A DNA stretch of 64,000 nt from positions 5,161,691-5,225,690 of the forward strand of contig CBDFKD010000002.1 of the NCBI GenBank assembly GCA_965248695.1, written 5' to 3'. The notes beneath the pieces are model-generated. The model searched no databases and was not told the DNA's origin. It saw only the letters and a list, made by a program, of their open reading frames with translations. This DNA is from Acidobacteriota bacterium (GTDB lineage Bacteria > Acidobacteriota > UBA890 > WLXD01). The translations under genes and the position numbers were made by a program. Shown here in pieces: positions 6,053-64,000 of this stretch. Numbering within the stretch: the stretch's first letter is position 1; each line of letters begins with the position of its first letter.

Positions 6053-8971
6053 AGCGTCTCTTGTCGACCGCACCCGCACTGGCCAGTGCGATCATCCTCT
6101 CGCTCACCGCAGGCGCCTGTTCCAGTCCCGACCCTGCTGACCAGACGCCGTCCGGCTCGGCCGTCGATCGGCCGCTGATGCCGGACTGGGACGCGGAGCG
6201 CAGCGAACGACTGGCGTTTTCCGGCGAGCCGTTTCGCACACCGGAGGGCTTTCGCGTCGAGGAAGTTGCCGGCGACGATCTCATCGGATCGGCCGTGAAT
6301 CTCACGTTCGCGTGGGATGGCCGCCCCATCGTGGCGCTCGAGCAACGGGGACTCGTAATTCTCGACGACGGCGACGGAGACGGTCGCTACGATCGAATGA
6401 CACGGCTCTCAGAAGAGATCAGCACCGCTCACGGCCTTTATGTGCTCGGCCCGGACGATCTGCTCGTGCATGCCGACGGGCCGAGTGATGGCCCCGGCCT
6501 CTATCGTGTGAGCGGCTGGCAGGAGGGTCCCTCGGAGAGCACGGTCGAGCTGCTTCGACGGTCGCGCGGAGGGATCCAGGAGCACGGTCCCCACACGATC
6601 ACCCGAGGCCCCGACGGAGCAATTTACCTGCTCTTCGGCAATCATGCCGTTCCCGACATCGAGCCCTCACAGCGCTCACCACTTCGCGCGCTCCAAGAGG
6701 ATCAGCTACTACCCGTCATTCTGGATCCACGCGGTCATGCAAACACCATTCGTGCCCCGGGCGGAACCATCTGGAGAGTCGACCTCGAGGCCGACTCCTG
6801 GGAGCTGTTCGCCGGCGGGCTGCGCAATCCATTCGACATGGCCTTTTCTCCTGCCGGCGGCCTCTTTGTCTACGAGGCGGACATGGAGTGGGATCGCAGT
6901 CTCCCGTGGTACCGACCCACGCGGGTCCTGCACGCGATCCCGGCCGGCGACTACGGGTGGCGAACCGGCTCCGGCAAAGTAGCGTTCGATAACATCGATA
7001 CGCTCCCCAGCGTCGCCGACGTCGGCCGCGGCTCGCCGGTGGGCGTGGCCTTCTACCGCCATCACGCCTACCCCGCGGCGTTCGACGGCGCGTTATTCCT
7101 AGGCGATTGGGCACGTGGCCGCATACGCGTTCTCTTTCCGCAGGAGCACGGCGCTAGCTGGCAGGGGGAGGCCGTCGACTTCGTTCTTCGAGAGCCTCTC
7201 AATGTGACCGACCTCGCGGTGGGTCCTGACGGCCATCTGTATTTCACCATCGGCGGTCGCCAGACCACTGGTGGGCTGTTCCGAGTGGTCTACGACGGAT
7301 CCGACGGTGGCGCCCGAGGGAGCATGCAAGGCGGTCAGGGGAGCGCTGTCGAGAGGGCCTTGCACCAGCCAATGCCGCGATCCGCCTGGGGCCGCGCGGC
7401 CATCGCACAGCAGCGAGCTGCGGCCGGGGCAAGCTGGGGAGAAGGCCTGCGCGACGCTGTCGAGGACACCGATCGATCGAGGTTGGAGAGACAGAGCGCG
7501 CTGGAGATCCTGCAGCTCTATGGCCCGCAACCGTCTGTTGACGATTTGCGGAGATTCCTGGCGGCAGATGATGCCGGCGTACGAGCTACCGTCGTGACCC
7601 ACCTGGGAACCCGAACCGGCCCTAGCGTCTACCGCGCACTGGCAGTCGCACTGGAAGACCCGGATGCGCGCGTTCGGCGCCGGGCGGCAGAGGCGCTGGC
7701 GCGCTCCGGGAGCGCTGGAGAGGGCGCAACCTGCGGACATCGAAGCTATCCTCGCCGGCCTGGTCGGCCTTCTCGACGACGAGGATCGGTTCGTTCGGTA
7801 CGCTGTCCGCGAGACGCTCGCTCGAGTGGACCCGGATCGCTGGATCTCCAAAGTGGATCTCGCCGGGCCACCTTCGAACGCCGCGTTCGAGGCGATGCTT
7901 GCCTTGGTTCTCCGTCCGGGCTTTCCCGATGCCGAGCTCGTCTTCGAACATCTGCGCCTTCACGTCCAATCACAACCCGGCGAAGTACTGCTGGGCTCCT
8001 ATTTACGCGTGCTCGAGCTCGCCCTGGTGCGCTCCAGGGACGCTGGGGTCGACAGCGTGGAGCTCGAGGGACTGGGCCAGTCCATGTTGGATTGGTTCCC
8101 CACGCAACGCCGCGAGCACAACCGCAAGCTCGAGCGCATCCTCGCCTACCTGGCTCCGCCGGGGGCGGTGGACGCGCTGACGGCAAGGTTGGCGCTCGGC
8201 CGGAACCAGGAGGACGAGATCCACACCCTCTACGCCTTGCGAGCGATCGAAGGCGACTGGAGCGAGGCCCAGCGACAGAGCGTCGTCACCTGGTTCGATC
8301 GTGCTCGAGCGTTCACCGGCGCAGCCAGCATGGTGGGCTATATCGACGCCCTCTGGCAGCGGTGGCTAGCGAACCTCTCCGACGCCGAGCGCGTGGCGGC
8401 GGTCGAACGCCGGCAGGTCTGGTTGAGCGCCGAGCGGGACAGGATCGCGGCACTGGTGGCCGACGAAGACCTGCCGAGCGAGGATGAGCGCCGCATGCTG
8501 CGTCAGATGAGCTTCGATGAGCTGGCAGAGTACGTCGAATACGACGTCATGGCCTACGAGCGCTTCGACCCTGCGCACGGCGAACGCGTCTTCCAGCGTG
8601 CCCGTTGTGCCGACTGCCACGTTTTCGGCGATGTCGGTCGCGGTGGCGGACCCGACCTCTCGACCGTCGTCAGTCGCTTCAGGCGGCGCGAGATCCTGGA
8701 GTCGATCGTCTACCCGTCACGGGTGATCTCCGACCAGTACAGTGCCCTTCGCGTCCGCCTCCGTGACGGACGGAGATACGTCGGCATGCACGCCGCCGAG
8801 AGCGAAGAGGACCTCGTCCTGATCACCGCTACGGGCGAACGGGTCGTCCTGGACAAACAGCTGGTCAGCGAGCGCGAGCCGGCCGACGTATCCCTGATGC
8901 CGGAGGGTCTACTCGAGGCCATGAGCTTCGACGACTTGATGAGCCTGATGCGATACCTGGAAGAAGGGTAG
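6049..8971 (+). CDS. PVC-type heme-binding CxxCH protein with membrane-bound-dehydrogenase and HEAT-repeat domains; apparent frameshift near 7720-7740 (possible pseudogene or sequence error)
   Basis: Lipoprotein-like signal MKRLLSTAPALASAIILSLTAGAC; HEAT-like repeats (DPDARVRRRAAEALA); C-terminal cytochrome c motif CADCH; reading frame switches from frame 1 (5983..8487 ORF) to frame 2 (7664..8971 ORF) around RSG/AQPADIEAILAGL. Confidence 0.6.
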
Positions 8972-9376
8972 GGCGGGCGGGTTCGAGCCCCAATGCGCCG
9001 TAACCAGGGACATGCCCTGGTGCTGGGTGAGCGGCGTAGTCTACGGCCTGGGGCACTGAGGTTTCCGGCCGCCGTGCACGCGAGCCTGGCTACGGCGCAC
9101 TGGGGCTCGAACCCGCCGCCGCGACCGAAGACACTTCTTGCCGGGCGGGCCGGTCGTGCCGCGAACTGAGACGCCGCGGCCCAGCGGTTCCGACGATCGC
9201 CCTCTTCCGTATTCCGGAGGCTGCCGCGACCTCAGGCGCTGCCGGGGAGGAAGTCGACACACCTCCTTCAACCAGCATCGCGTGCACGGCACACACCACC
9301 TAAAGGCGATGACGCGCGAGCAAAGGAGTTCCCCTAGCGCCAGGCGATGACGCTGGTAGAAGGAGGTGTGTCGACT
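8972..9376. repeat. Structured intergenic repeat element, copy B (intact)
   Basis: Homolog of 1377-1834; stem 1 gggttcgagcccc/ggggctcgaaccc and stem 2 gaagtcgacacacctccttc/gaaggaggtgtgtcgac are perfectly complementary; lies between convergent genes. Confidence 0.6.
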
Positions 9377-9419
9377 TGCTCCGCCCTCGTCTCAATCCCG
9401 CTCGCCTGATACCGAAAGA

Positions 9420-10901
9420 TCAATCGCCCGTTTGGCCGAACGTCTCCATGTACCACTTCACGAACCGAGCCGGGCTCCCCTCGTGAGTGGCGTAGCGGCC
9501 AGCGCTGTAGCCGCCCGACTGGATACCGAGGTGGTTGTTGCCGGTAAGCCAGATGTCTTCCATCGTCGTGACGTGCCACAGCGCCTTGAGCTCGTCCGGA
9601 TCGTAGTCGCGCCCCTCGACCGCATCCGGATGCACGAGCCAGATGACCTCGTTGTCGGTTCGGTCGTGCGCACGCGGTGTGTATCGGGCGATCATGACGT
9701 GGTCGTCGTAGCCCTGCCAGTAACCGGTTTGCCAGCGGGTCGTGGCGATATCGGTCTCATGGGTCCACGCGATCCTGGTTGGCAGGAGAGGAGCGACGGG
9801 GTTGCCATCCATGGACCCAGTGACGAACCCCGGGTTGAGCTCGCCGTCAACGTCGCCATAGCCGCCCATGCCTGACGCCCGTCGTTCGGCCGCTGCCGGG
9901 ACCCACTCGTCGACCGCCGTCGCGTGGGCGGCCTTCTGTTCGTCGGTGCGCTCTTCGTCGTAGTTGTGCGCTTTCACCAAGGACCCGTGCGCTGGTCCGC
10001 AGTGGTAGCACTCGATGAAGTTCTCCGTCGCGAGCTTCCAGTTCGACTTCAGCGGGTAGTACTCGCGGGCCGCGACCTTGAGCTTGTCGAAGCGGTAAAT
10101 TTCGTTCAGCGCTCGCACACGAGTCACGGTCGATTCGAACTCGGGGGGCGAATCCGATCGAGATAGATTGATGAAGATCTGGCCAGCGGCGACGCGCACA
10201 TGGCAGGGGAGAAGTCCGTTGTCCGCCGGGTCGAAATCGTCCTGCATGCCATAGGCGTAGATCAGACTTCCTTCGGTGTCATACGTCCAGGCGTGGTACG
10301 GACAGCGGAACACCGGCGAGTTGCCGTTCTGGCCAAGCTGCTTCACTGACAAGCGTGGATCCTGCGGCCTCGTATCCGCGTCGTGGCGGCACACCCGTGA
10401 GCCGCGGTGCCGGCAGACATTGTGGAAGGCGCCGACACTTCCGGTCTGGCTACGAACGAGCAGGATGCTCTCCGAGCGCCCGAACTCGAAAACGAAGAAA
10501 TCGCCCGGGCTCGGAATGCGGCTCGCCTGGTCGACGTACTGCCAGAGATTCTCCGCCAGGAAAGCCTCCTCCACCGCATAGTGCTTCGGGTCCAGGTAGT
10601 ACTCGGCCGGAATCGTGGTGCCTTCTTTCCAGCCGTTGATGCCGGCGTTCTCGGGCACGGTTACTGCGAACCGTGGCGCACCCTTGCCACCGTAGCCCGG
10701 TGCTTCCGCCGGCAAGTCTTTGCGGGCAACCGCAACCGGCGAGCCGATCGCATTCGCTGTTGATGGCCCCTGTGGTGGCGCACCGAACAGGGAGTTGGGC
10801 AAAGCGATTGCCGCGGTCCCAGCGGCTACCGAGGACTTGGCGAACGTGCGGCGGCTTACGCGCTGTCCGCCGTTGACGTCGTGACTGTCCTCGTTGCTCA
10901 T
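9420..10901 (-). CDS. Rieske non-heme iron oxygenase alpha-subunit-like protein with Tat signal
   Basis: Tat motif RRTFAKSSVAAGTAAIALP; Rieske 2Fe-2S motifs CRHRGSRVCRHD…CPYHAW; mononuclear iron motif ENFIECYHCGPAH. Confidence 0.75.
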   Translation of the reverse strand: MSNEDSHDVNGGQRVSRRTFAKSSVAAGTAAIALPNSLFGAPPQGPSTANAIGSPVAVARKDLPAEAPGYGGKGAPRFAVTVPENAGINGWKEGTTIPAEYYLDPKHYAVEEAFLAENLWQYVDQASRIPSPGDFFVFEFGRSESILLVRSQTGSVGAFHNVCRHRGSRVCRHDADTRPQDPRLSVKQLGQNGNSPVFRCPYHAWTYDTEGSLIYAYGMQDDFDPADNGLLPCHVRVAAGQIFINLSRSDSPPEFESTVTRVRALNEIYRFDKLKVAAREYYPLKSNWKLATENFIECYHCGPAHGSLVKAHNYDEERTDEQKAAHATAVDEWVPAAAERRASGMGGYGDVDGELNPGFVTGSMDGNPVAPLLPTRIAWTHETDIATTRWQTGYWQGYDDHVMIARYTPRAHDRTDNEVIWLVHPDAVEGRDYDPDELKALWHVTTMEDIWLTGNNHLGIQSGGYSAGRYATHEGSPARFVKWYMETFGQTGD

Positions 10902-11036
10902 CTACTTCGCCTCTCGACTATTCGAACGTTGGTCGACTCGCGCTTTCGCGAACTCGCCGAGCTTCAACGAACGAAAACCGCGGGAGCCGACGAGCAGATC
11001 GGCTCCCGCGGATTCACTAGCCAACTGACAGAAAGC

Positions 11037-12557
11037 TCAATCGCCGGCCTGGACAATCTCCTTCATGTACCAGTTGATGAAGCTCGACGGCCCGCCCTCG
11101 CGCGTTCCATACCGGCCGCCGCTGTATGCGCCGGACTCGACGCCGTCGTGGTTGTTGTCGGTGATCCAGATATCCTCCTGGATCGTGACGTGCCACAGCC
11201 CCTTGACGTGTTCCGGGTCGTAGTCACGGCCCTCGACTGCGTCGGGGTGCACCAGCCAGACGATCTCGGCGTCAGTGAACTTCTCGTTGCGCGGCGTGAA
11301 CCGAACCACCATGACGTGATCGTCGTAGAACTGCCAGTATCCGGTCGACTCTCCGGTGGTCGCGATGATCGTACGGTGGTCGCCTTCCTTTCTGCCGGGC
11401 AGCCAAGGTGCAGCCTGCTTGCCGTCGATCGTGCCAGTGACAAACCCCGGGTTGAGCAGACCAGTGAGGTTCTCATACTGGGGCTCGCCGCCCATACCTC
11501 CTCCGCCCATGCCGGCATCTTCATCGTCGCGACGACGACGGCTGTCCTCCGGAACCCAGTCCGCCACGGCAGCAGCCTTTTCGTTCATCTGCTGGTCGCT
11601 GAGGTCGTGGTCCCAATTGTGCGTCGTCACCAGGGGTCGGTGGGCCGGGCCGCAGTGGTAGCACTCCTTGAAGTTCTCGAGCGCCAGCTTCCAGTTGGCG
11701 TTGATTGGGTAGGACTCGCGCGCCGCGACCTTGAGGTCTTTCAAGCTGTACTCGGGGGCCAGCCGCCTGAGGGCGGTAACTGCCGAATCGAAATCCGGCG
11801 GCGTGTCTGACTTCGACAGGTTGACGAAGATCTGGCCTTCGGTAACCCGCGTGTGGCACGGGAGCAAACCGTTGTCGGCCGGGTCGAAGTCGTCCTGCAT
11901 GCCGTAGGCGTAGATAAGGCTGCCCTCGGTGTCGTATGTCCAGGCGTGGTACGGGCAGCGGAACACGGGTGAGCTGCCGCTCTGGCCGAGCTGCTTGACC
12001 GACAGACGCGGATCGCTCGGCTTCGAGTCGGAGTCGTGACGGCACAATCGCGATCCGCGGTGACGACAGACGTTGTAGAACCCGCGCACCTCGTTGTCCT
12101 GGCCTCGAACGATCAGAATGCTCTCGGAGCGACCGAACTCGAAGACGTAGAAGTCGCCCGGGTTCGGAATGCGGCTCTCCTGGTCGGTGTACTGCCAGAA
12201 GTTCTCCCCGACGAATTTCTCGTCGGCTTCGAAATGCTTCGCCTCGATGTAGTACTCGGCGGGAATCGTCAGGCCCTCTTTCCAGCCGTTGACGCTCGCC
12301 TTCTTGGCCACCGGGCCGGTGAGCGGGGCTGCGCCCCGGCCGCCGTAGCCAATGTTCTCGTTGCGCGCTTCGACGCGCGCGGCGCGGCCATAGGTGGCCG
12401 TGGTTGCGGTCGTCGTTGCGGCCGTTGCCGGGGTAGCGCCGAAAAGCGATTTCGGGAGAGCGACGGCGGCGGTGCCCGCGGCAACCGAGGACTTGGCGAA
12501 CGTGCGGCGGCTTACGCGCGGCCCGCCGTTCTTGTCGTGGTCGTCCTTCTTGCTCAT
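11037..12557 (-). CDS. Rieske non-heme iron oxygenase alpha-subunit-like protein with Tat signal (tandem paralog)
   Basis: Start ATG at 12557 with AGGAGA RBS; Tat motif SRRTFAKSSVAAGTAAVALP; CRHRGSRLCRHD…CPYHAW; ENFKECYHCGPAH. Confidence 0.75.
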   Translation of the reverse strand: MSKKDDHDKNGGPRVSRRTFAKSSVAAGTAAVALPKSLFGATPATAATTTATTATYGRAARVEARNENIGYGGRGAAPLTGPVAKKASVNGWKEGLTIPAEYYIEAKHFEADEKFVGENFWQYTDQESRIPNPGDFYVFEFGRSESILIVRGQDNEVRGFYNVCRHRGSRLCRHDSDSKPSDPRLSVKQLGQSGSSPVFRCPYHAWTYDTEGSLIYAYGMQDDFDPADNGLLPCHTRVTEGQIFVNLSKSDTPPDFDSAVTALRRLAPEYSLKDLKVAARESYPINANWKLALENFKECYHCGPAHRPLVTTHNWDHDLSDQQMNEKAAAVADWVPEDSRRRRDDEDAGMGGGGMGGEPQYENLTGLLNPGFVTGTIDGKQAAPWLPGRKEGDHRTIIATTGESTGYWQFYDDHVMVVRFTPRNEKFTDAEIVWLVHPDAVEGRDYDPEHVKGLWHVTIQEDIWITDNNHDGVESGAYSGGRYGTREGGPSSFINWYMKEIVQAGD

Positions 12558-53722: not shown

Positions 53723-54421
53723 CTAGCTGGAGTTGAACCGAACCTCTAGCTCCTTGACAACATCCAGCAGGGTTGCTGTCGACGCCGGTAACAATACGTA
53801 GTACAGCGGCTCTCCGTCTCCAGCACCGGCCCGCGGTTCGATAACAAAAACCTTTTCGGCGAGAGTTGCCGCAAATGACGTGACGCTGTCTTTGGCCTCG
53901 TAGGTCACGCGGTACCCGATGCGCAACGGGAGCAAATGGTGTTCGTCAGCGTAGGGGCTCACGGTTGCCGGTTCGAGGGTCTGCTCGACGAACTCCTGGA
54001 ACGCAGAGGAGAACATCCGTCGAAAGTCGATGTCGAGGGTGCAGATGCAGAAACTGTCCTGTGTCTCTGCGATGGGGACCATCGCGTCAACGTCGCACAG
54101 GCCGGACTCGACGAAACACTGCATGAGCTGGGCGTGGAACTCGTCCGCGTTTTCCGATGTGCCGAGCACCGTCGAGGAGATCCGCCGGGGCTCTACCCGC
54201 GTATGCATGATCGGCACCGCCGTGTCTTCGTCCAGCTGGTACGCGCCCCTCTCGAATACCACGGTATCTAGCCCGGCTTCGCCCAGGTTCGGGTTTACGT
54301 TGTTGAAACCGAACTCGGTGATGAGCTTGTTGCCAAGGCCTGCTGACAACACGGCCCCCGCAGGAAGCACGTCCGATCTAAAGATGCGCGTCTGGCTGAC
54401 GCTCAGTCGTCGAACCTTCAC
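53723..54421 (-). CDS. Hypothetical protein (232 aa), third gene of a toxin/HTH operon
   Basis: Translationally coupled to upstream HTH gene (4-nt overlap); no recognisable motif. Confidence 0.5.
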   Translation of the reverse strand: MKVRRLSVSQTRIFRSDVLPAGAVLSAGLGNKLITEFGFNNVNPNLGEAGLDTVVFERGAYQLDEDTAVPIMHTRVEPRRISSTVLGTSENADEFHAQLMQCFVESGLCDVDAMVPIAETQDSFCICTLDIDFRRMFSSAFQEFVEQTLEPATVSPYADEHHLLPLRIGYRVTYEAKDSVTSFAATLAEKVFVIEPRAGAGDGEPLYYVLLPASTATLLDVVKELEVRFNSS

Positions 54422-55092
54422 GCGACTATCCCCTGCTCAGCTCCGCTGGAGATTCCGGACGCCGGGCGCGCCTGAACCGAGGGGGCAATCGAGTCGTCCA
54501 TTGTGCTGGCGTAGTGGGAGATGTCGTCCTGCGGGATGAGACTACTGGCCCCTTGGGATTCCAGCCCGCTCTGGGGCACGCAGCTTGGTGCCAGATGCTG
54601 TTGGGTTGGTGCTCCTGGGGCGGGGTACCACCACATTGCCTTGCTGCCGATCGACGAGCCGGCAGAATGCCATATGCGAAGAAGGTCCGCGATCGTGATG
54701 GCAGTAGACGTATCCTCCTCTACTGCTCGGCCGTGGAACTCTGGATCCTCGTCAAACGAGGCCTGCCACAGGGTGGCAGGGCTGCGATCCTCGATCTCAA
54801 ACAGCATCTCACCAAAGCTCTCGAACCGCACCGACAATCCGATGTCGAAGATCTCGGCCAGCCGCTTAAGCGTCCCGATCCGCCCCGCCGGTTCGTTCGG
54901 ATCCTCTAGGCGGGAAATAGCTGACTGGCCGGTTCCGAGGAGTTCGGCAAGTTGCTCCTGAGATAGGCCCCGGTGCTTCCGGAGGATCCGAATCTGTGAC
55001 GCTACGACAGAATCGACGAACGAGTCGATGTAGGCATGCCGGTACTCTGGGTCACGAAACTCCTCGCGTAAGTGGTCTATGTCACGGGTCAA
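54418..55092 (-). CDS. XRE-family HTH regulator (HigA-like antitoxin with disordered C-terminal tail)
   Basis: LRKHRGLSQEQLAELLGTGQSAISRLE. Confidence 0.7.
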   Translation of the reverse strand: MTRDIDHLREEFRDPEYRHAYIDSFVDSVVASQIRILRKHRGLSQEQLAELLGTGQSAISRLEDPNEPAGRIGTLKRLAEIFDIGLSVRFESFGEMLFEIEDRSPATLWQASFDEDPEFHGRAVEEDTSTAITIADLLRIWHSAGSSIGSKAMWWYPAPGAPTQQHLAPSCVPQSGLESQGASSLIPQDDISHYASTMDDSIAPSVQARPASGISSGAEQGIVA

Positions 55093-57639: not shown

Positions 57640-57735
57640 GATTATGTCGACCTTCTTGCTGAACGCGTTTGTTAGGCGAGTAAATCTGCGCATGTTCATG
57701 CGCATGGTCAGGTTCTGCCGCTCGATTCGCCGGAG
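57640..57735 (-). pseudogene. C-terminal fragment of an IS1-family transposase (…ERQNLTMRMNMRRFTRLTNAFSKK…)
   Basis: Matches conserved C-terminal motif of the intact IS1-family transposase at 59026..59895 but diverged in sequence. Confidence 0.5.
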
Positions 57736-57892
57736 AGCCGATGAGCTAGAAGAACTTCTCATCGAAAGCGTCGATGACCCATCCGACCTCGACCACGAGC
57801 GCGTCAAGGCTCTCGAATACAGCCAAGCCGGTATCAGGCCCCATACCTTCGCCGAAGACTACGCGCGCGACCACAAGCGTATCCATTCGGCA
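57727..57892. repeat. 165-bp segment duplicated (near-)identically at 62548-62712
   Basis: Directly read identity. Confidence 0.9.
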
Positions 57893-58098
57893 ACTAATGC
57901 AGATCCGAATCCGAAAATGAGAGCAAACCGCAACAGCGATCGCGTCGGCTGCGAGAATGCCCCCGGCAAACGGGTGCTGTCCTAATTTGAACTGCTCGAA
58001 GTTTATGAGTGATTTACAACGATTTATATCATGCAGGATGGACTCTCCCTTAACTTACTTTATACTTTCACTTAAATCGTATTGACGGGAGAGAGACT

Positions 58099-58701
58099 AT
58101 GGTTCTAGGCTCTGACAGGTTGTGGGAAACGGCGTTTAGGGGACTCATGGACCCGAAATTGCTTGTCGAAAGGTACCAGTACTTATCCAGGAAGCGACGC
58201 GAGATCGAGGGGAAGATGGCGGCCCTGGCGGAAATGCAGCAAGTCTTAGGGGTGGAATTGGACGACGTAAACGACCAGCGCGCCATGCTTTGGCTTCAGC
58301 TCGATCGACAGGCTCTGCTTGATCGTGACGATATCCGCGAGTATCTCGGTGACGCCACGAAGCCGCCTGGCATCAAGCGCGTGCGTGCCGAACAGGTAGA
58401 CCGAGACTTGATGAGATACCTGGCCAATCAAGATGGTCGGGAATGGCGCGTCCGGGACATCCTCACGCACAAGAACGCCATGCGGCTCGGCCATATGTCT
58501 GATAGCGGTGTTCGGGCGGCGATTAACCGCGCCATCGAGCGCGGCGAACTGGAGAAGACTGGCGGATGGGGGATCGTTCGCGTATCGGACCGAGGTAAGG
58601 AGTCTTACGGTCTTGATGCCGAGGCTGACTTGGAAGAACAAGACATGGACCTGGCCGAGAAAGAGGCCATGGAAAAGGAGAAGGCTAGGCCACCGTTCTG
58701 A
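58099..58701 (+). CDS. Hypothetical protein (200 aa) in low-GC island
   Basis: AT-rich upstream region 57990-58098; GGGAGAGAG RBS. Confidence 0.45.
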   Translation: MVLGSDRLWETAFRGLMDPKLLVERYQYLSRKRREIEGKMAALAEMQQVLGVELDDVNDQRAMLWLQLDRQALLDRDDIREYLGDATKPPGIKRVRAEQVDRDLMRYLANQDGREWRVRDILTHKNAMRLGHMSDSGVRAAINRAIERGELEKTGGWGIVRVSDRGKESYGLDAEADLEEQDMDLAEKEAMEKEKARPPF

Positions 58702-59004
58702 ACAAAGAGCCCGCCGCTGCGGTAACAGCGACGGGCTCCGACAACTTGTGATGGCCTCGTGGACAACAGACGGTCAAGTCGCGGGACTGGAAATCCCGAG
58801 ATCCCGGTTCGACACCGGGCGGGGCCTCACCTTTCTCCCCTGACAGCAAGGAGGGTCAGATGATAGCGCGAGCACCACCGTCAGCGCATCCCTGAACGCC
58901 GAAGGGGCCGGGGTGCGTCTCACGATGCTCCCCGGCCACCTATAAGTCGCCCGGCCCGCTGCACGAACAGCGAACCGGGCTAGATCCAAGACGCGGGCAT
59001 AGGC

Positions 59005-59930
59005 CGCATCGGACCCTCACAGCCATTGTGGTCCTGCCCGCCATCCGGAGCAAGACCGATGGCGAACGTACTGGCCCCCGAGAAGAAGCGCATGATCATC
59101 GCCGCCCTGGTGGAGGGCAACAGCATCCGCAGCATCGAGCGCATGACCGGCTGTCACCGAGACACGATCTGCCGGCTGCTCGTGCGGGTAGGTGAAGGCT
59201 GCGAAGCCATGATGCGCGAGCGGTTCACCGGTTTGCGCCTTGACGATCTCCAGGTCGATGAAATCTGGACCTACGTCCAGAAGAAGCAGGCCACGGTGAT
59301 CAGGTCCGGCAAGCGCGTGAATCCCAAGCATGGTGATCAATGGGTTTTCGTCGCGCTCGATGCCGAAACGAAGTTGGTGCCGCATTGGATCGTCGGCAAG
59401 CGCGACGGCTACAACTCCTACCAGATGATCTCGGAGCTGGCCCGTAGGATCGACGGGCCGTTCCAACTGACCACGGACGCTTTCGCTGGCTACAAGGCCG
59501 CTCTCGGAGTCGTGGCGGCTCGTGGTATCGACTACGCACAGCAGACCAAGAGCTATACGGCCACGAATCCATCCTTCGGACGTTACTCACCACCAAGGGT
59601 CAGCCACTGCACAACTCAGGTTGTGGCCGGAGATCCAGATCCGGAGGCGATCTCCACGAGCTACGTCGAGCGTCAGAACCTGACCATGCGGATGAGTATG
59701 CGACGGTTCACCCGGCTGACGAACGGCTTCTCAAAGTCGCTGCGCAACCTGGAAGCCGCTGTGTCGCTGCACTTCGCCTGGTACAACTTCGTGCGGATTC
59801 ACGACAGCCTGCGGAGCACGCCGGCCGTTGTGGCCGAAGTAGTTAGTACCGAGTTGGCGATGGACGACCTGCTGGCCTTCGAGGCGGGCTACTAATGCTC
59901 GGTGATTTCCACAGGATATCCACAACGGGT
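59005..59930 (+). mobile_element. IS1-family insertion sequence (boundaries approximate)
   Basis: Imperfect terminal inverted repeats around cattgtggtcctg / caggatatccacaacgg; single fused InsAB-like ORF. Confidence 0.45.
59026..59895 (+). CDS. IS1-family transposase (single-ORF InsA-InsB type)
   Basis: N-terminal HTH; C-terminal YVERQNLTMRMSMRRFTRLTNGFSKSLRNLEAAVSLHFAWYNF matches IS1 InsB C-terminus. Confidence 0.85.
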   Translation: MWSCPPSGARPMANVLAPEKKRMIIAALVEGNSIRSIERMTGCHRDTICRLLVRVGEGCEAMMRERFTGLRLDDLQVDEIWTYVQKKQATVIRSGKRVNPKHGDQWVFVALDAETKLVPHWIVGKRDGYNSYQMISELARRIDGPFQLTTDAFAGYKAALGVVAARGIDYAQQTKSYTATNPSFGRYSPPRVSHCTTQVVAGDPDPEAISTSYVERQNLTMRMSMRRFTRLTNGFSKSLRNLEAAVSLHFAWYNFVRIHDSLRSTPAVVAEVVSTELAMDDLLAFEAGY

Positions 59931-60809: not shown

Positions 60810-61424
60810 CTACCCTGGCAGGCGGCCGGGGCTGGCGCGAACGCCGAGCACGGTGTTGGTTTCCGGGTCGATGTCGCATTGGTAGGTGTGGTTCTGCCAA
60901 GCACCGAGGCCATTTTGGAACTGGATCTTGTCGCCGATCAGGGTGAGGGTTCCGGCAGACTGATCCTTCCAGCGGAAGCGGCTGAACTTTGGCTCAAGGA
61001 AGCCGTCTGTCCACTGGTGGCTGTATTGCGCTAGCCGCTCGATGCGGTCTTCGCAGTACACACCTGTAGAGATGTGCCTGTTGCCCCAGCAGTTGAGGTC
61101 TTGCCGACAGGCCGTGTCGCTGACCGAAGGTGCGGAAGACGAGCCTGACCCTGGGTCATCCGTGCTGAGGACGTAGACGCAAAAAGCCAGTCCTAGCAGA
61201 AGCATCACCACACATCCCATGGCGGTCTTGCTGGCCTGCTTTTTCTCTGCAGCCGCCGTCTCGGCGGTGAGGCTGGGTGCCGAGTCCTCGGGCTCGGGGG
61301 CTGCAGTGGCTGGGGGCGCGGCCGCGGCCGGATCCTCCGTTCCAACCGGGCAACCGCACTGCGGACAGGCTGCCGCCTGGTCGGAAATCTGAGCCTTGCA
61401 TTCAGGGCATTCGATCAGAGCCAA
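60810..61424 (-). CDS. Zinc-ribbon membrane protein (N-terminal CPEC…CPQCGC, one TM, Cys-containing C-terminal domain)
   Basis: Motifs directly read. Confidence 0.5.
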   Translation of the reverse strand: MALIECPECKAQISDQAAACPQCGCPVGTEDPAAAAPPATAAPEPEDSAPSLTAETAAAEKKQASKTAMGCVVMLLLGLAFCVYVLSTDDPGSGSSSAPSVSDTACRQDLNCWGNRHISTGVYCEDRIERLAQYSHQWTDGFLEPKFSRFRWKDQSAGTLTLIGDKIQFQNGLGAWQNHTYQCDIDPETNTVLGVRASPGRLPG

Positions 61425-61714: not shown

Positions 61715-62119
61715 TCATCGGTGTTCGATGGGGCGTAGCTTCGGTGCTGCGCGTGGCTCGGGATCGTCGCCGTATTCGGCTCCGAGTTCCCTAACAATCT
61801 TTTCAAGCTCGTCTACGTCCGCTTCGTATTCTTCTTTGATCTGGAAAAGCAAATCCATCAGGCGGAGGGTTCGTATGCGCGAGCGCGTGAGCCCCGGCAG
61901 ATGAACCGCCAAGGCATCAATGAGCCCCTGGCCGCTCGGGTGCGACTTGCCCGTGATCCAGTTACTCAGCGTCGGTTGTGGGACACCTATTAGGCGGGCA
62001 GTAGCGCTCTTGTTCATGCCGCTTTCCTCGATCGAAGCCTCGATCGCCGAGCCCAGGTACCGCCTGAGGTAGATGTGTCCGTGTTTCTTGCGGGGTCGCA
62101 CGCGATCAATACTTAGCAC
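61715..62119 (-). CDS. XRE-family HTH protein (divergent partner)
   Basis: MNKSATARLIGVPQPTLSNWITGKS. Confidence 0.55.
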   Translation of the reverse strand: MLSIDRVRPRKKHGHIYLRRYLGSAIEASIEESGMNKSATARLIGVPQPTLSNWITGKSHPSGQGLIDALAVHLPGLTRSRIRTLRLMDLLFQIKEEYEADVDELEKIVRELGAEYGDDPEPRAAPKLRPIEHR

Positions 62120-62181
62120 TTCCTGCCGACGGGTGCCGGAAAGCTATTGCGCTATCCAGTGAAACAGGTTATCTTTCTTCT

Positions 62182-62415
62182 ATGAGATTCAGCAGAGAAA
62201 CACTCCGATCTGCACGGGAAGAGGCGGGAATGTCCCGCGAGGACGCTGCCTTCTTCTTGCGGCAGTCTGGAAACGGTGTGTCGGTACGCACACTGCTTAA
62301 TTGGGAGAGCGGTCGGTCGGAACCGCCGGCAGGCCAACTCGTGAATTTGGCGAATTTGTACGGCGTGAACCCAGTTGCATTTTTTTCACCAGATTCAACC
62401 AGTAACGCAGCCTAA
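62182..62415 (+). CDS. XRE-family HTH protein (Cro-like)
   Basis: MSREDAAFFLRQSGNGVSVRTLLNWESGRS. Confidence 0.65.
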   Translation: MRFSRETLRSAREEAGMSREDAAFFLRQSGNGVSVRTLLNWESGRSEPPAGQLVNLANLYGVNPVAFFSPDSTSNAA

Positions 62416-62547
62416 GACGAATACTCATACTCGACGAGGTCGCATAGAAACCCCATGACGCTACCGAACGCAGACACCCACACGCCACTGCGGAATCAGG
62501 CGGGTAGCGCAGTGGGCGAGGCCATCGTCACGCTTCTCATGGAGCTT

Positions 62548-62712
62548 CGCCGGAGAGCCGATGAGCTAGAAGAACTTCTCATCGAAAGCGTCGATGACCC
62601 ATCCGACCTCGACCACGAGCGCGTCAAGGCTCTCGAATACAGCCAAGCCGGTATCAGGCCCCATACCTTCGCCGAAGACTACGCGCGCGACCACAAGCGT
62701 ATCCATTTGCAC
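62548..62712. repeat. Second copy of the 165-bp duplicated segment
   Basis: Identical to 57727-57892. Confidence 0.9.
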
Positions 62713-63432
62713 TTTTGGGGGTGCAGAGAAGACGAGGGTCGCGATTTTTGCGTTGTGTACCAGGCGGGGCTTGGTGACGGCGATGAACGTTTTGGGCTGG
62801 CCAGCGGATTCGTCATCGACGAGAGCGTTCAAACGGAAGCGCTCGGGCATCGCGGCGACGACCGAGAGCAATTTGTGCTTGTTCCGGTTGTCCAGTCTTC
62901 TCAGAAGGGAGAGGGGCGCCATCACGGGATCGTCACCTTGGTACGGCTGAACTCGCTCGATCAAGGATCTGGCCTCAGCGGGAAGGCTGGCAATGCGCCG
63001 AGCCCCGCGCGATTCGTATGCCCGTTCGGAGTCGAAGATCGGAAACAGGGTCAGTGTGTCATCAAGATCCGCCCCAGAAAGCTCCCAGGCGATGTAGTCG
63101 AGCGAGCACCGCAGGTTGTGGATGCAATCGCCGATGGTCAGCGCCCACTCACTACTGGGCAAAGCAGGAGGATCTTTGACGCGAGCGACGTAGCGGACTT
63201 CGTCGATCTCAGCCTCAACGACGATTCGATAGAGGTTCGCTTCAAAGAAGGAGTCAGTTTCTCTTTTAAGCGCTTCGAGGTGCTGTCTCGCCCGACGAAG
63301 TTTGGCGCGACTTCCATCAAGCCCCAATTGGCACAGCTCCTCGGGATTGAGGTCGACGACGACGGGGAGGCGGCGTGAGCGGCGTGAGGCTAGTCGAACT
63401 CGACGCCTTCCAGAAGCTCGTCGACGGTGCAT
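62566..63432 (-). CDS. Hypothetical protein (288 aa) with possible HEPN-like Rx4-6H motif (RLDNRNKH); antisense ORF 62455..63378 is an alternative
   Basis: Diverse composition with amphipathic helices (IHNLRCSLDYIAWELS); downstream of and overlapping minus-strand HTH gene; C-terminal 50 aa lie in the 165-bp repeat. Confidence 0.4.
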   Translation of the reverse strand: MHRRRASGRRRVRLASRRSRRLPVVVDLNPEELCQLGLDGSRAKLRRARQHLEALKRETDSFFEANLYRIVVEAEIDEVRYVARVKDPPALPSSEWALTIGDCIHNLRCSLDYIAWELSGADLDDTLTLFPIFDSERAYESRGARRIASLPAEARSLIERVQPYQGDDPVMAPLSLLRRLDNRNKHKLLSVVAAMPERFRLNALVDDESAGQPKTFIAVTKPRLVHNAKIATLVFSAPPKVQMDTLVVARVVFGEGMGPDTGLAVFESLDALVVEVGWVIDAFDEKFF

Positions 63433-63650
63433 TCCAGGGCGCGGGCGATCTTCGCGACGTTCTCGATTCCAGGGCTTCTTGTGTTGCCGCTCAGAATCTT
63501 GTTCAGCTGGCTTCGAGCCATCCGCGCCCGATAAGCCGTCTCCTCGATCGAGATTTCCTTCTCCTGGATTACGGCTCGCACACGCTGCCCAAACGTCAAG
63601 CTCATGCGCCAGACGCTATTCGTGTGAGTTTCCCCCATCAATCTTCGCAA
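63390..63650 (-). CDS. XRE-family HTH protein
   Basis: ISIEETAYRARMARSQLNKILSG. Confidence 0.6.
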   Translation of the reverse strand: MRRLMGETHTNSVWRMSLTFGQRVRAVIQEKEISIEETAYRARMARSQLNKILSGNTRSPGIENVAKIARALECTVDELLEGVEFD

Positions 63651-63657
63651 ATACTAC

Positions 63658-63704
63658 TTGACGAATCTGCAACTTCTCTTGTATAAATATAGACAGCGCA
63701 GATT
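63658..63704 (+). promoter_or_regulatory. Sigma70-like promoter (TTGACG-18-TATAAA) flanked by 6-bp inverted repeat ATCTGC/GCAGAT, between divergent HTH genes
   Basis: Directly read. Confidence 0.5.
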
Positions 63705-63731
63705 TGCAAGGTCATAACCGGAAGCTCGATC

Positions 63732-63941
63732 ATGGATAATCGCATCAAGGAAGAACGCGAAAAGCGGGGCATGACTCAAATGGCCTTGGCTGTCGCCGCT
63801 GGGCTCCACCCAGGACACGTCAGCCGGATCGAAAACGGCTCCGGCTGCGAGCTGAAGACTGCACGCAAACTCGCTGACGCGCTCGAAGTAACCCTCGATG
63901 AGCTAGTCGGGCCGCGACGAAGCTGCCTAGGAGCCCCATGA
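63732..63941 (+). CDS. XRE-family HTH protein (Cro-like)
   Basis: MTQMALAVAAGLHPGHVSRIENG. Confidence 0.7.
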   Translation: MDNRIKEEREKRGMTQMALAVAAGLHPGHVSRIENGSGCELKTARKLADALEVTLDELVGPRRSCLGAP

Positions 63942-64000
63942 CGCTACCGAGCCCCACCACCCCCACGCCACTGCGGAGTGAGGCGAACGGCGCAGTCAAC

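Follow-up and report, generated by a model that had tools for sequence, protein, structure and literature searches.

Organization of the locus

The locus lies in a prophage-like, XRE-rich stretch of the 64,000-nucleotide region analyzed here (the window, to whose numbering all positions refer), outside any insertion sequence (IS) and between two convergent XRE genes. Two long open reading frames (ORFs) overlap at this site, as the first-pass annotation had reported: an ORF of 307 amino acids on the plus strand (62455-63378) and one of 288 amino acids on the minus strand (62566-63432), both beginning with ATG. An XRE-family HTH gene on the plus strand (62182-62415; HTH_3, E=1e-9) ends 39 nt before the plus ORF, and is convergent with the pair formed by a second XRE-family HTH gene (minus strand, 63390-63650; HTH_3, E=4.5e-10) and the minus-strand gene downstream of it. 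A scan of 62100-63800 found no terminators; the one promoter-like site, a weak one, precedes the minus-strand XRE gene. The 3' end of the minus-strand gene is covered by one arm (62546-62707) of a direct repeat, perfect over 162 nt; the other arm (57726-57887) is a truncated gene copy adjoining an IS-like element.

The two ORFs are codon-aligned, with sense positions 1, 2 and 3 opposite antisense positions 3, 2 and 1. Their GC contents by codon position are nearly equal (0.69/0.42/0.67 for the plus ORF, 0.67/0.43/0.67 for the minus ORF), so that GC3 does not discriminate between them; on both points the earlier description was correct. The plus ORF, whose true start is uncertain (ATG at 62455 or an internal ATG at 62539), covers the whole minus-strand gene and is a candidate second coding gene. 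Given local codon usage, the probability that the antisense frame is open by chance at this locus is ∼0.03, and in a pair picked by eye this alone is unremarkable. The pair was nonetheless rightly flagged as noteworthy, although for a reason opposite to the one given then, as the plus ORF also seems to be under selection.

The N-terminus of the plus ORF had been described as conserved at the start of the next module. The repetition is real, with plus-strand positions 62432-62513, at the end of the XRE gene and the start of the plus ORF, matching 63915-63996 at 78% over 82 nt; conservation as protein is the less likely explanation. This ∼80-nt segment, of which a homologous locus (L001) holds four further copies after XRE genes, contains an inverted repeat (CCACTGCG, 62485-62492; CGCAGTGG, 62508-62515) and is more likely a DNA or RNA element recurring after XRE genes, although its hairpin folding is marginal (z=-2.45).

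The minus-strand gene

The minus-strand gene occupies 62566-63327 and encodes 253 amino acids from a TTG start (63327-63325), 9 nt downstream of a Shine-Dalgarno sequence, GAGGAG (63337-63342, minus strand), read off the sequence. Residue 36 of the minus ORF is the start of all homologs, and public gene callers record precisely the 253-residue form (homologous protein P0227), starting at 63327. The preceding 35 codons, an arginine-rich 5' extension (63328-63432), are missing from homologs with the sole exception of P0006, whose extension is unrelated. Since both homologs and gene callers begin at 63327, the extension and its overlap with the XRE gene are non-coding and do not belong to the gene.

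In this shorter form the minus-strand ORF is a genuine protein-coding gene. Its family comprises ∼19,000 clusters and is unannotated and unnamed. The structural model (pLDDT 91) predicts a helical bundle, a beta domain and a C-terminal helix, and its top fold matches are HEPN domains, with generic four-helix bundles nearly equal in score. The full-length model has no significant match in the PDB (Foldseek), a PDB sequence-profile search with the family returned nothing, and two phage proteins have the same fold. Conserved residues comprise K9/R12/H16, D67/N71/R73/D77, Q127 and D149-K150-H151; H151, present in 99% of 75 members, stands in an N-x-D-K-H-(R) motif, and a second pair, R12-x3-H16, lies on helix 1. 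The most probable role of the protein is that of an enzyme or binder targeting nucleic acids. The converse proposal, that the plus frame is the sole real gene, was rejected, as the minus frame is open in every homolog, is more conserved than the plus frame, and folds confidently.

The cassette in IS1595-family elements at related loci

At related loci the gene and its antisense ORF (together, the cassette) are part of IS1595-family insertion sequences. A DDE_Tnp_IS1595 transposase adjoins the cassette at 39 of 162 loci, and lies within ∼1.2 kb at 31 of 52 loci whose antisense frame is open vs. 1 of 21 whose frame is closed (p=1.3e-5). At three loci (L002, L013 and L063), inverted repeats of 23 nt (perfect), 28 nt and 24-27 nt, respectively, with the common terminus GGCAATAA, enclose both transposase and cassette, and are flanked by perfect 8-bp target site duplications (TSDs; CTACTTTA, AAAGTAAG and AGAACTCG). 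The elements measure 2.07-2.19 kb. The transposase gene is upstream of, and co-directional with, the antisense ORF in many copies; in others it is co-directional with the sense gene, and three cassette orientations occur in all. Its repeated presence in many diverged IS copies, in one or another of these orientations, points to an accessory role in the element and away from random cargo. In the window, neither a transposase match nor IS termini of the L002/L013/L063 type occur; the antisense frame tends to be lost from copies no longer within the IS.

Maintenance of the antisense frame

In divergent homologs the antisense frame is maintained beyond compositional expectation. It is stop-free in the window, at L001, L002 and L003, and in the L001 paralog, and is open in ∼55% of ∼140 diverse homologs. 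Zero antisense stops were found at 26 of 74 genome loci where 7.9 such loci were expected, with 129 stops in total vs. 265 expected; a family-wide chance test gave 24 stop-free loci out of 70, vs. 6.8 expected (P=3e-11). At 42 of 76 loci, most of them at most 45% identical to one another, an open frame spans 96% or more of the gene, and the antisense ORF shuts just beyond the gene at both ends. An independent metagenome set of 60 genes yielded 31 with an open frame and the same codon depletion as described below.

The avoidance of stops is codon-specific. A-ending codons are more common in family genes than in their flanks in 11 of 11 control comparisons (ratios 1.08-1.57), and in the same controls only CTA (0.56), TCA (0.52) and TTA (0.54) are depleted. 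This depletion is restricted to the reading frame (0.53 in frame vs. 1.70 and 1.04 off frame), and GC3 is 0.66 in family genes vs. 0.71 in flanks; at L005, where GC content is 0.47, no antisense stops occur where 11 were expected. An artefact of GC content was accordingly rejected on the codon-specific, in-frame depletion. The distribution of stop counts is bimodal and follows IS membership. About one quarter of family members carry antisense stops at background level, and the second frame is therefore dispensable for the minus-strand protein.

Conservation of antisense residues

Open antisense frames share amino acids, conserved site by site, as well as lacking stops. Antisense-specific constraint, located by per-column excess over a synonymous-shuffle null, is concentrated in a core of the plus ORF (residues 74-171, plus strand 62674-62967) opposite minus-strand residues 218-121. 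About a dozen consensus residues (E-R-Y, G, H-x-H, C-A, S, C) include a tyrosine present in 85% of sequences, two histidines at 62% each and two cysteines at ∼50% each, all held by constrained sense codons (ATA/GTA, GTG/ATG and GCA/ACA for Tyr, His and Cys, respectively). These five residues are better conserved than the sense residues facing them, and variation at their codons falls on the antisense wobble base. The window ORF retains E74, Y76, H84-x-H86 and C99, and departs from the consensus at three positions (second Cys to Gly, Gly to Asp, Arg to Asp). The Cys/His set suggests a metal site.

Among homologs less than 45% identical, synonymous-codon sharing is far stronger in open than in closed members (z=15 vs. 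2.2) and is still seen below 25% identity; third codon positions of the sense gene vary less in open members, and the antisense BLOSUM62 score per site is 0.18 vs. 0.01 in the synonymous-shuffle null (z=26). The 31 open metagenome genes replicate the pattern (Tyr in 25, each His in 17, the two Cys in 18 and 19; z=11). IS1595 transposases, used as an external control for codon sharing, gave z=0.9, an underpowered figure from only four non-redundant sequences.

Substitution-based measures did not discriminate. In 15 close pairs, OLGenie-style NN/NS/SN/SS counts look alike for open and closed copies (dNN/dNS 0.39 vs. 0.44; SN/SS 0.72 vs. 0.81), so that over most of its length the antisense sequence can be only weakly constrained, if at all. 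Between the window and L001, Nei-Gojobori omega is 0.41 in the minus and 0.76 in the plus frame; these estimates come from only 35 differences, none of them beyond the first 390 nt. A survey of antisense starts revealed heterogeneous starts and no conserved context, with a Shine-Dalgarno-like motif 5' of in-frame starts at 36% of open loci (14-21% in other frames, 16% at closed loci). Pfam searches with 39 antisense translations found nothing relevant, a PDB sequence-profile search found nothing, and the AlphaFold2 (AF2) model of the plus protein (pLDDT 35, from a two-sequence alignment) is uninformative either way. A single called homolog, near-identical, was found among 5.8 billion proteins: the candidate second protein family is all but absent from databases because gene callers never call the antisense ORF.

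These mixed results bear on the most serious alternative, in which only the minus-strand protein is functional, the frame being kept open so that an antisense transcript is translated through and the resulting peptide being irrelevant. Such a transcript might arise, for example, by read-through from the IS transposase gene or, in the window, from the plus-strand XRE gene; translation would shield it from Rho-dependent termination or decay, and the transcript would regulate the HEPN-like gene. Stop avoidance is indeed the strongest signal, overall dN/dS-type measures on the antisense strand do not differ between open and closed copies, neither a conserved start nor a conserved ribosome-binding site is present, the ORF shuts just outside the gene on both sides, and the transposase gene stands upstream in the same direction in many IS copies. 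This account nevertheless leaves unexplained why the tyrosine, the His-x-His pair, the two cysteines and the glutamate, arginine and glycine are kept in unusual sense codons, and why antisense BLOSUM scores are in excess; nor does it sit easily with those IS in which transposase and sense gene point the same way. We regard it as unlikely, with perhaps one chance in five or slightly better.

Relation to HEPN and abortive-infection systems

The minus-strand protein had been proposed to carry a HEPN-like R-x6-H motif and to form an HTH plus HEPN/Abi-like arrangement with the XRE gene at 63390-63650, to which it was thought to be translationally coupled. The R-x6-H span (LLRRLDNRNKHKLL) is present in the window protein, but its arginine occurs in just 12% of 75 family members. 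No conserved Rx4-6H HEPN catalytic motif was found among these members: arginines upstream of H151 are poorly kept (R143 in 17%, R144 in 12%), and position 148 is mostly I, T or A. Neither long-ORF translation matched Pfam, NCBIfam, PADLOC or PHROGs; for the window minus-strand protein, no family was found at E≤1 (Pfam, PADLOC, NCBIfam) or at E≤0.001 (PHROG), and the suggested HEPN, Abi_2 and DUF4145 profiles were thus not matched. Pfam searches with 75 relatives yielded no HEPN family at E≤0.1 and nothing relevant. The family thereby differs from HEPN proteins such as the toxins of HEPN/MNT systems (e.g., SO_3166, PDB 5yep), PDB 4nqf and Abi-type RNases, in lacking a conserved Rx4-6H, HEPN matches in Pfam or PADLOC (window protein and 75 members) and an MNT neighbor; moreover, its full-length architecture, with an additional beta domain and a C-terminal helix, is unmatched in the PDB.

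Coupling to the XRE gene disappears with the corrected TTG start, which leaves a 62-nt gap. HTH neighbors are not a family trait either: HTH_3 was found in 2 of 69 downstream convergent neighbors, and 74 upstream neighbors included one HTH_17 and, among the common families, no HTH_3. The neighbor survey revealed no MNT or other constant neighbor. A co-oriented HTH gene beside a gene of this type was seen in the window and at the L001 paralog; an obligatory XRE partnership was rejected, and the minus-strand XRE gene is a local neighbor rather than a family partner.

It is therefore improbable, at about one chance in ten, that the locus encodes an XRE-regulated HEPN/Abi abortive-infection toxin, translationally coupled to its regulator, with the plus ORF a meaningless shadow. 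The prophage-like setting rich in XRE genes, the position of the L001 paralog downstream of an XRE gene and the two phage proteins of the same fold would all fit such a toxin, but the coupling is gone, the motif arginine is rare, HEPN, Abi and PADLOC profiles do not match, XRE neighbors are rare across the family, and the family-wide codon evidence contradicts a shadow ORF.

Discussion

We consider it probable that the locus is a dual-coding cassette. The minus strand (62566-63327) would encode a 253-residue protein combining a HEPN-like helical bundle with a beta domain and a conserved polar constellation, and the plus strand would read those codons in reverse, giving an ORF of roughly 260-320 residues. 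As this antisense frame is kept stop-free and has conserved residues of its own, it most likely encodes a second protein, and the plus ORF would thus be translated. The native home of the cassette appears to be a two-gene IS1595-family element of ∼2.1 kb, in which the transposase gene would be followed by the antisense ORF on one strand, with the HEPN-like gene inside the latter on the opposite strand. Because the two mRNAs would be fully complementary and convergent, their expression may be antagonistic, through transcriptional interference or double-stranded RNA, and the pair may act as an effector and a partner serving the transposon, e.g., in addiction, stabilization or transposition control.

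A more specific version of this reading is tentative, and we would put it at about one in three: an ancient, cross-phylum, fully overlapping antisense pair in which a HEPN-like protein and a Cys/His partner share ∼0.8 kb as an IS1595 accessory module and would function together (effector and antagonist, or transposition regulator), their very arrangement making expression of the two mutually exclusive.

Siguier, Gagnevin and Chandler reportedly described, in 2009, IS1595-family insertion sequences that carry extra genes (‘transporter IS’). The loci related to ours resemble these in having a DDE_Tnp_IS1595 transposase, terminal inverted repeats, 8-bp TSDs and one extra coding segment, but here both strands of the extra segment seem to be coding, and the window copy lies outside such an IS. 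The antitoxin of type I toxin-antitoxin systems is a short, non-coding antisense RNA. The cassette likewise places a toxin-like gene and a potential antagonist on complementary strands, which would make their expression intrinsically antagonistic; in contrast, the antisense partner here consists of a full-length ORF in which amino acids are conserved, and the minus-strand protein is only putatively toxic. No HEPN or IS1595 family in which an antisense gene is embedded emerged from literature searches.

The existence of long antisense overlapping genes in bacteria is disputed, and the few cases that have gained acceptance are young and taxon-restricted; to our knowledge, large surveys find antiparallel ORFs generally not to be under selection. 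Experimental support exists for olg1 and olg2 of Pseudomonas aeruginosa (PMC8850804) and for pop, ano, laoB and others of E. coli O157:H7 (PMC7103648, PMC5960689, PMC5810103, PMC9927249), all described as young or taxon-restricted, with expression data. Like these, the plus ORF is a long ORF antisense within an annotated gene, missed by annotation and showing some signs of purifying selection. Unlike these, the candidate pair is known from sequence alone, spans nearly the whole gene (∼250-320 codons), travels on an IS, and is common to homologs less than 25-45% identical in several phyla. The ORFs antisense to dnaK (the former ‘NAD-GDH’, Pfam PF10712) share with the cassette family-wide stop avoidance on the opposite strand in a codon-aligned frame, and show no negative selection on the antisense translation (bioRxiv 10.1101/724807); here, in contrast, antisense residues outconserve the sense residues facing them, and the open state correlates with IS membership.

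That the open frame is a mere compositional by-product of a GC-rich gene in which TTA, CTA and TCA are rare is very hard to credit: although this frame is known for long shadow ORFs in GC-rich DNA, the window by itself reaches only P∼0.03, stop avoidance opposite genes is statistically common (bioRxiv 10.1101/724807) and such an origin has been argued before for classic ‘non-stop frames’ and the dnaK antisense ORFs, family genes have lower GC3 and more A-ending codons than their flanks yet half the TTA/CTA/TCA, L005 lacks all 11 expected stops at a GC content of 0.47, the depletion is confined to the reading frame, stop counts are bimodal and track IS membership, and antisense residues are conserved at specific sites.

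For annotation of the window, the analysis corrects the start of the minus-strand gene and removes a spurious XRE coupling; more broadly, it exposes a gap, in that a very large family with a HEPN-like fold (∼19,000 clusters) is unannotated. The candidate dual-coding cassette stands apart in its whole-gene span, its sharing across phyla, and its combination of codon-specific stop avoidance with conserved antisense residues. As loss of the antisense frame tracks exit from the IS1595 element, the family also supplies a natural contrast of on and off states and is experimentally tractable.

The minus-strand gene and its family

The two overlapping ORFs lie where the first-pass annotation placed them, the plus ORF at 62455-63378 (307 aa) and the minus ORF, as first read, at 62566-63432 (288 aa), and they are codon-aligned, with sense codon positions 1/2/3 (minus gene) facing antisense positions 3/2/1 (plus ORF). 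As GC content by codon position is almost equal in both (0.69/0.42/0.67 plus, 0.67/0.43/0.67 minus), GC3 is indeed useless for choosing between them. The proposed HEPN/Abi-like assignment of the minus protein found no profile counterpart: Pfam, PADLOC and NCBIfam yielded nothing for either translation at E≤1, nor did PHROGs at E≤0.001.

The minus strand encodes a real gene, shorter than first read. Homologs, detected down to ∼30% identity in a search of 5.8 billion proteins, are all 250-263 aa long and begin at minus-ORF residue 36, a TTG (63327-63325, minus strand) with GAGGAG (63342-63337) 9 nt upstream; public gene callers record exactly this 253-aa form. The Arg-rich 35-codon 5′ extension is therefore noncoding, and the corrected start leaves a 62-nt gap to the XRE gene at 63390-63650, so that the translational coupling once suggested for this pair does not hold. 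A profile search of 1.84 billion representatives returned 19,115 clusters at E≤1e-3 (14,387 at E≤1e-10). With few exceptions, these are stand-alone proteins 250-280 aa long; among 76 listed matches having precomputed Pfam data, none carries a Pfam domain.

An AlphaFold2 model (75-sequence alignment; pLDDT 91, pTM 0.87) consists of a helical bundle (helices 4-30, 58-84, 101-111, 117-125 and 138-151), a beta domain (156-218) and a C-terminal helix. Foldseek found no full-length PDB match; two unnamed phage proteins in BFVD, A0A514TZW7 (E=1e-12, TM 0.69) and A0A8A1VD03 (E=1e-4), share the full fold, so the family is also present in phage genomes. As modelled, the minus protein is HEPN-like in fold, but lacks the motif that defines the HEPN superfamily, and membership is not established: the Arg of the R-x6-H span previously taken for this motif occurs in 12% of 75 members (the adjoining Arg in 17%), and HEPN-type Pfam models match none of the 75. 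Positions that are conserved include K9, R12, A13, H16; G66, D67, N71, R73, L76, D77; F95, P96; Q127, P128; and D149, K150, H151. The protein probably acts on nucleic acid.

The antisense frame is kept open

Eighty family loci were taken from genomes of Acidobacteriota, Solirubrobacterales, Acidimicrobiia, Chloroflexota, Planctomycetota, Proteobacteria and others. Relative to the TTA/CTA/TCA rate in flanking genes, antisense stops are halved (129 over 74 loci, 265 expected), and 26 of the 74 have none (7.9 expected; Poisson-binomial P=3e-11), including one locus of GC 0.47 with 11 expected. At many loci with one or two stops, these are confined to the first 3% of the sense gene, where the antisense ORF would end, and 42 of 76 loci are open across at least 96% of the gene. 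Open members are mostly ≤45% identical to any other; since synonymous sites are saturated at that distance, each is nearly independent evidence.

Sixty genes from an independent scan of metagenome contigs, each <60% identical to any gene of the genome set, behave alike: 31 have no inner antisense stop, and CTA (0.030) and TCA (0.069) are used less than the remaining A-ending codons (0.13-0.22). In the genome set, family-gene GC3 lies below that of flanking genes, and A-ending codons are enriched over the flanks in 11 of 11 control comparisons (ratios 1.08-1.57), yet CTA, TCA and TTA fall to 0.56, 0.52 and 0.54 of their flanking levels; this depletion of stop complements is confined to the one frame (0.53, vs. 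1.70 and 1.04 off-frame). A compositional artefact is excluded by the excess of stop-free loci, by these opposing and in-frame codon shifts and by their replication. Chance does not account for the plus ORF.

Specific antisense residues are conserved

Among homologs <45% identical, open members share the same codon at identical sense residues more often than under within-gene synonymous shuffling (0.425 vs. 0.375, z=15), an excess still present below 25% identity; in members with at least two stops it shrinks (0.360 vs. 0.349, z=2.2). Per site, the antisense translation reaches a BLOSUM62 score of 0.18 vs. 0.01 in the shuffle (z=26; closed members, which contain stops, z=3.5). Information at sense third positions amounts to 0.37 bits in open and 0.28 in closed members, and in the C-terminal third it equals that at first positions. 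Metagenome genes give codon-sharing z values of 11 (open) and 4.5 (closed).

The signal is concentrated in individual columns. Minus residue 216 (I/V) is nearly always ATA or GTA, giving antisense Tyr in 85%; residues 206 and 208 (V/M, as GTG or ATG) give His in 62% each (H-x-H); residues 193 and 121 (A/T, as GCA or ACA) give Cys in ∼50% each; F218 as TTC gives Glu and A217 as GCG gives Arg. At all of these columns the variable base is sense position 1, i.e. the antisense wobble base. The resulting motif, ERY-x2-G-x4-H-x-H-(12-20 residues)-(D/E)(F/Y)CAVF ... LD-x-C, degrades and gains stops in closed members. Its key residues recur among the 31 open metagenome genes (Tyr in 25, Glu in 23, His in 17 for both positions, Cys in 18 and 19), and the window plus ORF keeps E74, Y76, H84-L-H86 and C99, while three further consensus positions are occupied by Gly, Asp and Asp. 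As judged from codon use across homologs, codon-specific selection keeps the frame open, and antisense residues are conserved at specific sites.

Beyond stops and roughly a dozen residues, constraint on the antisense sequence looks weak. In an OLGenie-style count on 15 close pairs, the open and closed classes are not distinguished (dNN/dNS 0.39 vs. 0.44; SN/SS 0.72 vs. 0.81), and comparison of the window with L001, its nearest relative, a locus in an Acidobacteriota MAG, gives omega 0.41 in the minus and 0.76 in the plus frame from just 35 differences. Antisense start sites vary among loci, and SD-like motifs precede in-frame antisense starts in 36% of open loci (14-21% in other frames). The antisense protein has no relatives in Pfam or the PDB and a single, near-identical called homolog; its AlphaFold2 model (pLDDT 35) derives from a 2-sequence alignment too shallow to inform.

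The cassette resides in IS1595-family elements

No neighbour gene is constant on either side of the minus gene: IS1595-type transposases, other transposases and integrases are found there most often, and HTH_3 occurs in 2 of 69 downstream neighbours. By tblastn, an IS1595-type transposase lies near the family gene at 39 of 162 loci, mostly 70-450 nt away, in three arrangements, pointing the same way as either the sense gene or the antisense ORF. Among informative loci, IS adjacency marks 31 of 52 open and 1 of 21 closed copies (Fisher p=1.3e-5).

At three loci, L002 (5909-8099), L013 (3939-6046) and L063 (3914-5987), a complete IS1595-family element of 2,074-2,191 bp contains both transposase and candidate dual-coding cassette. 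Both genes lie between terminal inverted repeats of 23-28 nt (common terminus GGCAATAA...TGAC-AACC), and perfect 8-bp target duplications (CTACTTTA, AAAGTAAG and AGAACTCG) flank the elements; hence the cassette is an internal module of active elements. Transposase and, after 150-200 nt, antisense ORF (287-322 aa) share one strand, with the HEPN-like gene inside the antisense ORF on the opposite strand. L002 also has a 97-aa ORF (6762-7055) between transposase and cassette. In L013, a 31-nt inverted repeat (4811-4876; 81% complementary, 4-nt loop) directly follows the family-gene stop, ahead of the convergent transposase, and overlaps candidate antisense starts; one possible role is that of a bidirectional terminator. 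When the gene is no longer within an element, its second frame tends to decay.

The window copy and its surroundings

The window copy is open though outside any IS, and the window contains no IS1595 transposase or matching termini. Its stretch is prophage-like and XRE-rich, with HTH genes at 61715-62119(-), 62182-62415(+), 63390-63650(-) and 63732-63941(+); an XRE gene precedes the ORF on each strand, in a convergent layout. The same unusually XRE-dense end holds a 224-aa XRE-type HTH protein (54418-55092, minus strand; HTH_3 E=2e-9) and a 204-aa ORF (60810-61424, minus strand) that combines a zinc ribbon at its N terminus with a low-complexity Ala/Pro linker and a probable membrane segment; the match of this ORF to phage family phrog_13160 (E=3e-17, function unknown) supports the prophage-like setting. 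L001 has a terminase and many XRE genes nearby.

DNA homology to L001 is limited to window 62455-63453, from which it follows that the cassette was exchanged between different XRE contexts. Within 62566-63327 (L001 10001-10762), the first 390 nt contain all 35 differences and the last 372 nt are identical, a pattern indicating mosaic recombination at the minus gene. L001 also harbors a paralogous module (7302-8416) in which a 69-aa XRE gene precedes a family member of 285 aa, 32% identical to the window protein and free of antisense stops; the window XRE gene at 63732-63941, with the ORF from 63941 cut by the window end, may be its counterpart.

An ∼80-nt element directly follows XRE genes at window 62432-62513 and 63915-63996, and on the minus strand of L001 near 8420-8530, 9300-9420, 10830-10930 and 11470-11600. 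Its pattern (ATGACG-TACC ... ACGCCACTGCG-N15-17-CGCAGTG) includes a conserved 7-9 bp inverted repeat, CCACTGCG-N15-CGCAGTGG in the window; hairpin folding is marginal (z=-2.45 at best). The recurrence first read as a conserved plus-ORF N-terminus is thus real, but an operator or RNA element explains it more plausibly than a protein motif does; this leaves ATG 62455 or ATG 62539 as the plus start. Operator, weak hairpin or module junction may each apply.

A perfect 162-nt direct repeat (57726-57887 / 62546-62707) points to a recent duplication or recombination event; its upstream arm (57726-57887) is a truncated copy of the minus-gene 3′ end, comprising the final ∼47 codons and 20 nt of sequence beyond them. 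A ∼2-kb segment (57661-59730) bounded by 65-nt inverted repeats (57661-57725 / 59666-59730, 78% complementary), with an ORF without matches (58099-58701) and another (59026-59895) with weak DDE transposase matches (IS1, IS240, rve_3) and an HTH, is a probable IS-like insertion abutting the truncated copy.

Discussion

The conserved residues suggest that translation of the plus ORF yields a protein with a His/Cys/Tyr site in its constrained core (∼aa 74-171), a reading we somewhat favor. In the main rival reading, only translation through the antisense frame would matter, protecting a regulatory or read-through transcript, with the protein itself irrelevant; this would account for an open frame, but leaves the conserved antisense Tyr, His and Cys unexplained, and we regard it as unlikely. 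The earlier XRE-HEPN abortive-infection model is only partly supported: the real minus protein and its HEPN-like fold stand, while coupling, R-x6-H, a profile match and XRE as partner do not.

If the plus ORF does yield a protein, the two products might, more tentatively, form a functional pair serving the transposon, in which complementary, convergent transcription would make their expression antagonistic, as in a toxin-antitoxin or switch module.

Accepted bacterial antisense overlapping genes, such as olg1/olg2 of P. aeruginosa (PMC8850804) and several in E. coli O157:H7 (PMC9927249, PMC7103648), have been reported as young or taxon-restricted, and a review (PMC7457138) also regards such genes as typically young. 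A survey of 929 genomes reported that the strand opposite many genes, classically dnaK, avoids stops, with no negative selection on the translations (bioRxiv 10.1101/724807). Our literature searches turned up no HEPN-like or IS1595-borne family in which an antisense gene is embedded. In contrast to the young or taxon-restricted overlaps, the present candidate pair is deep, full-length, family-wide and linked to mobile elements; it would add a new variant to antisense-overlapping genes, and its putative second protein family is missing from databases.
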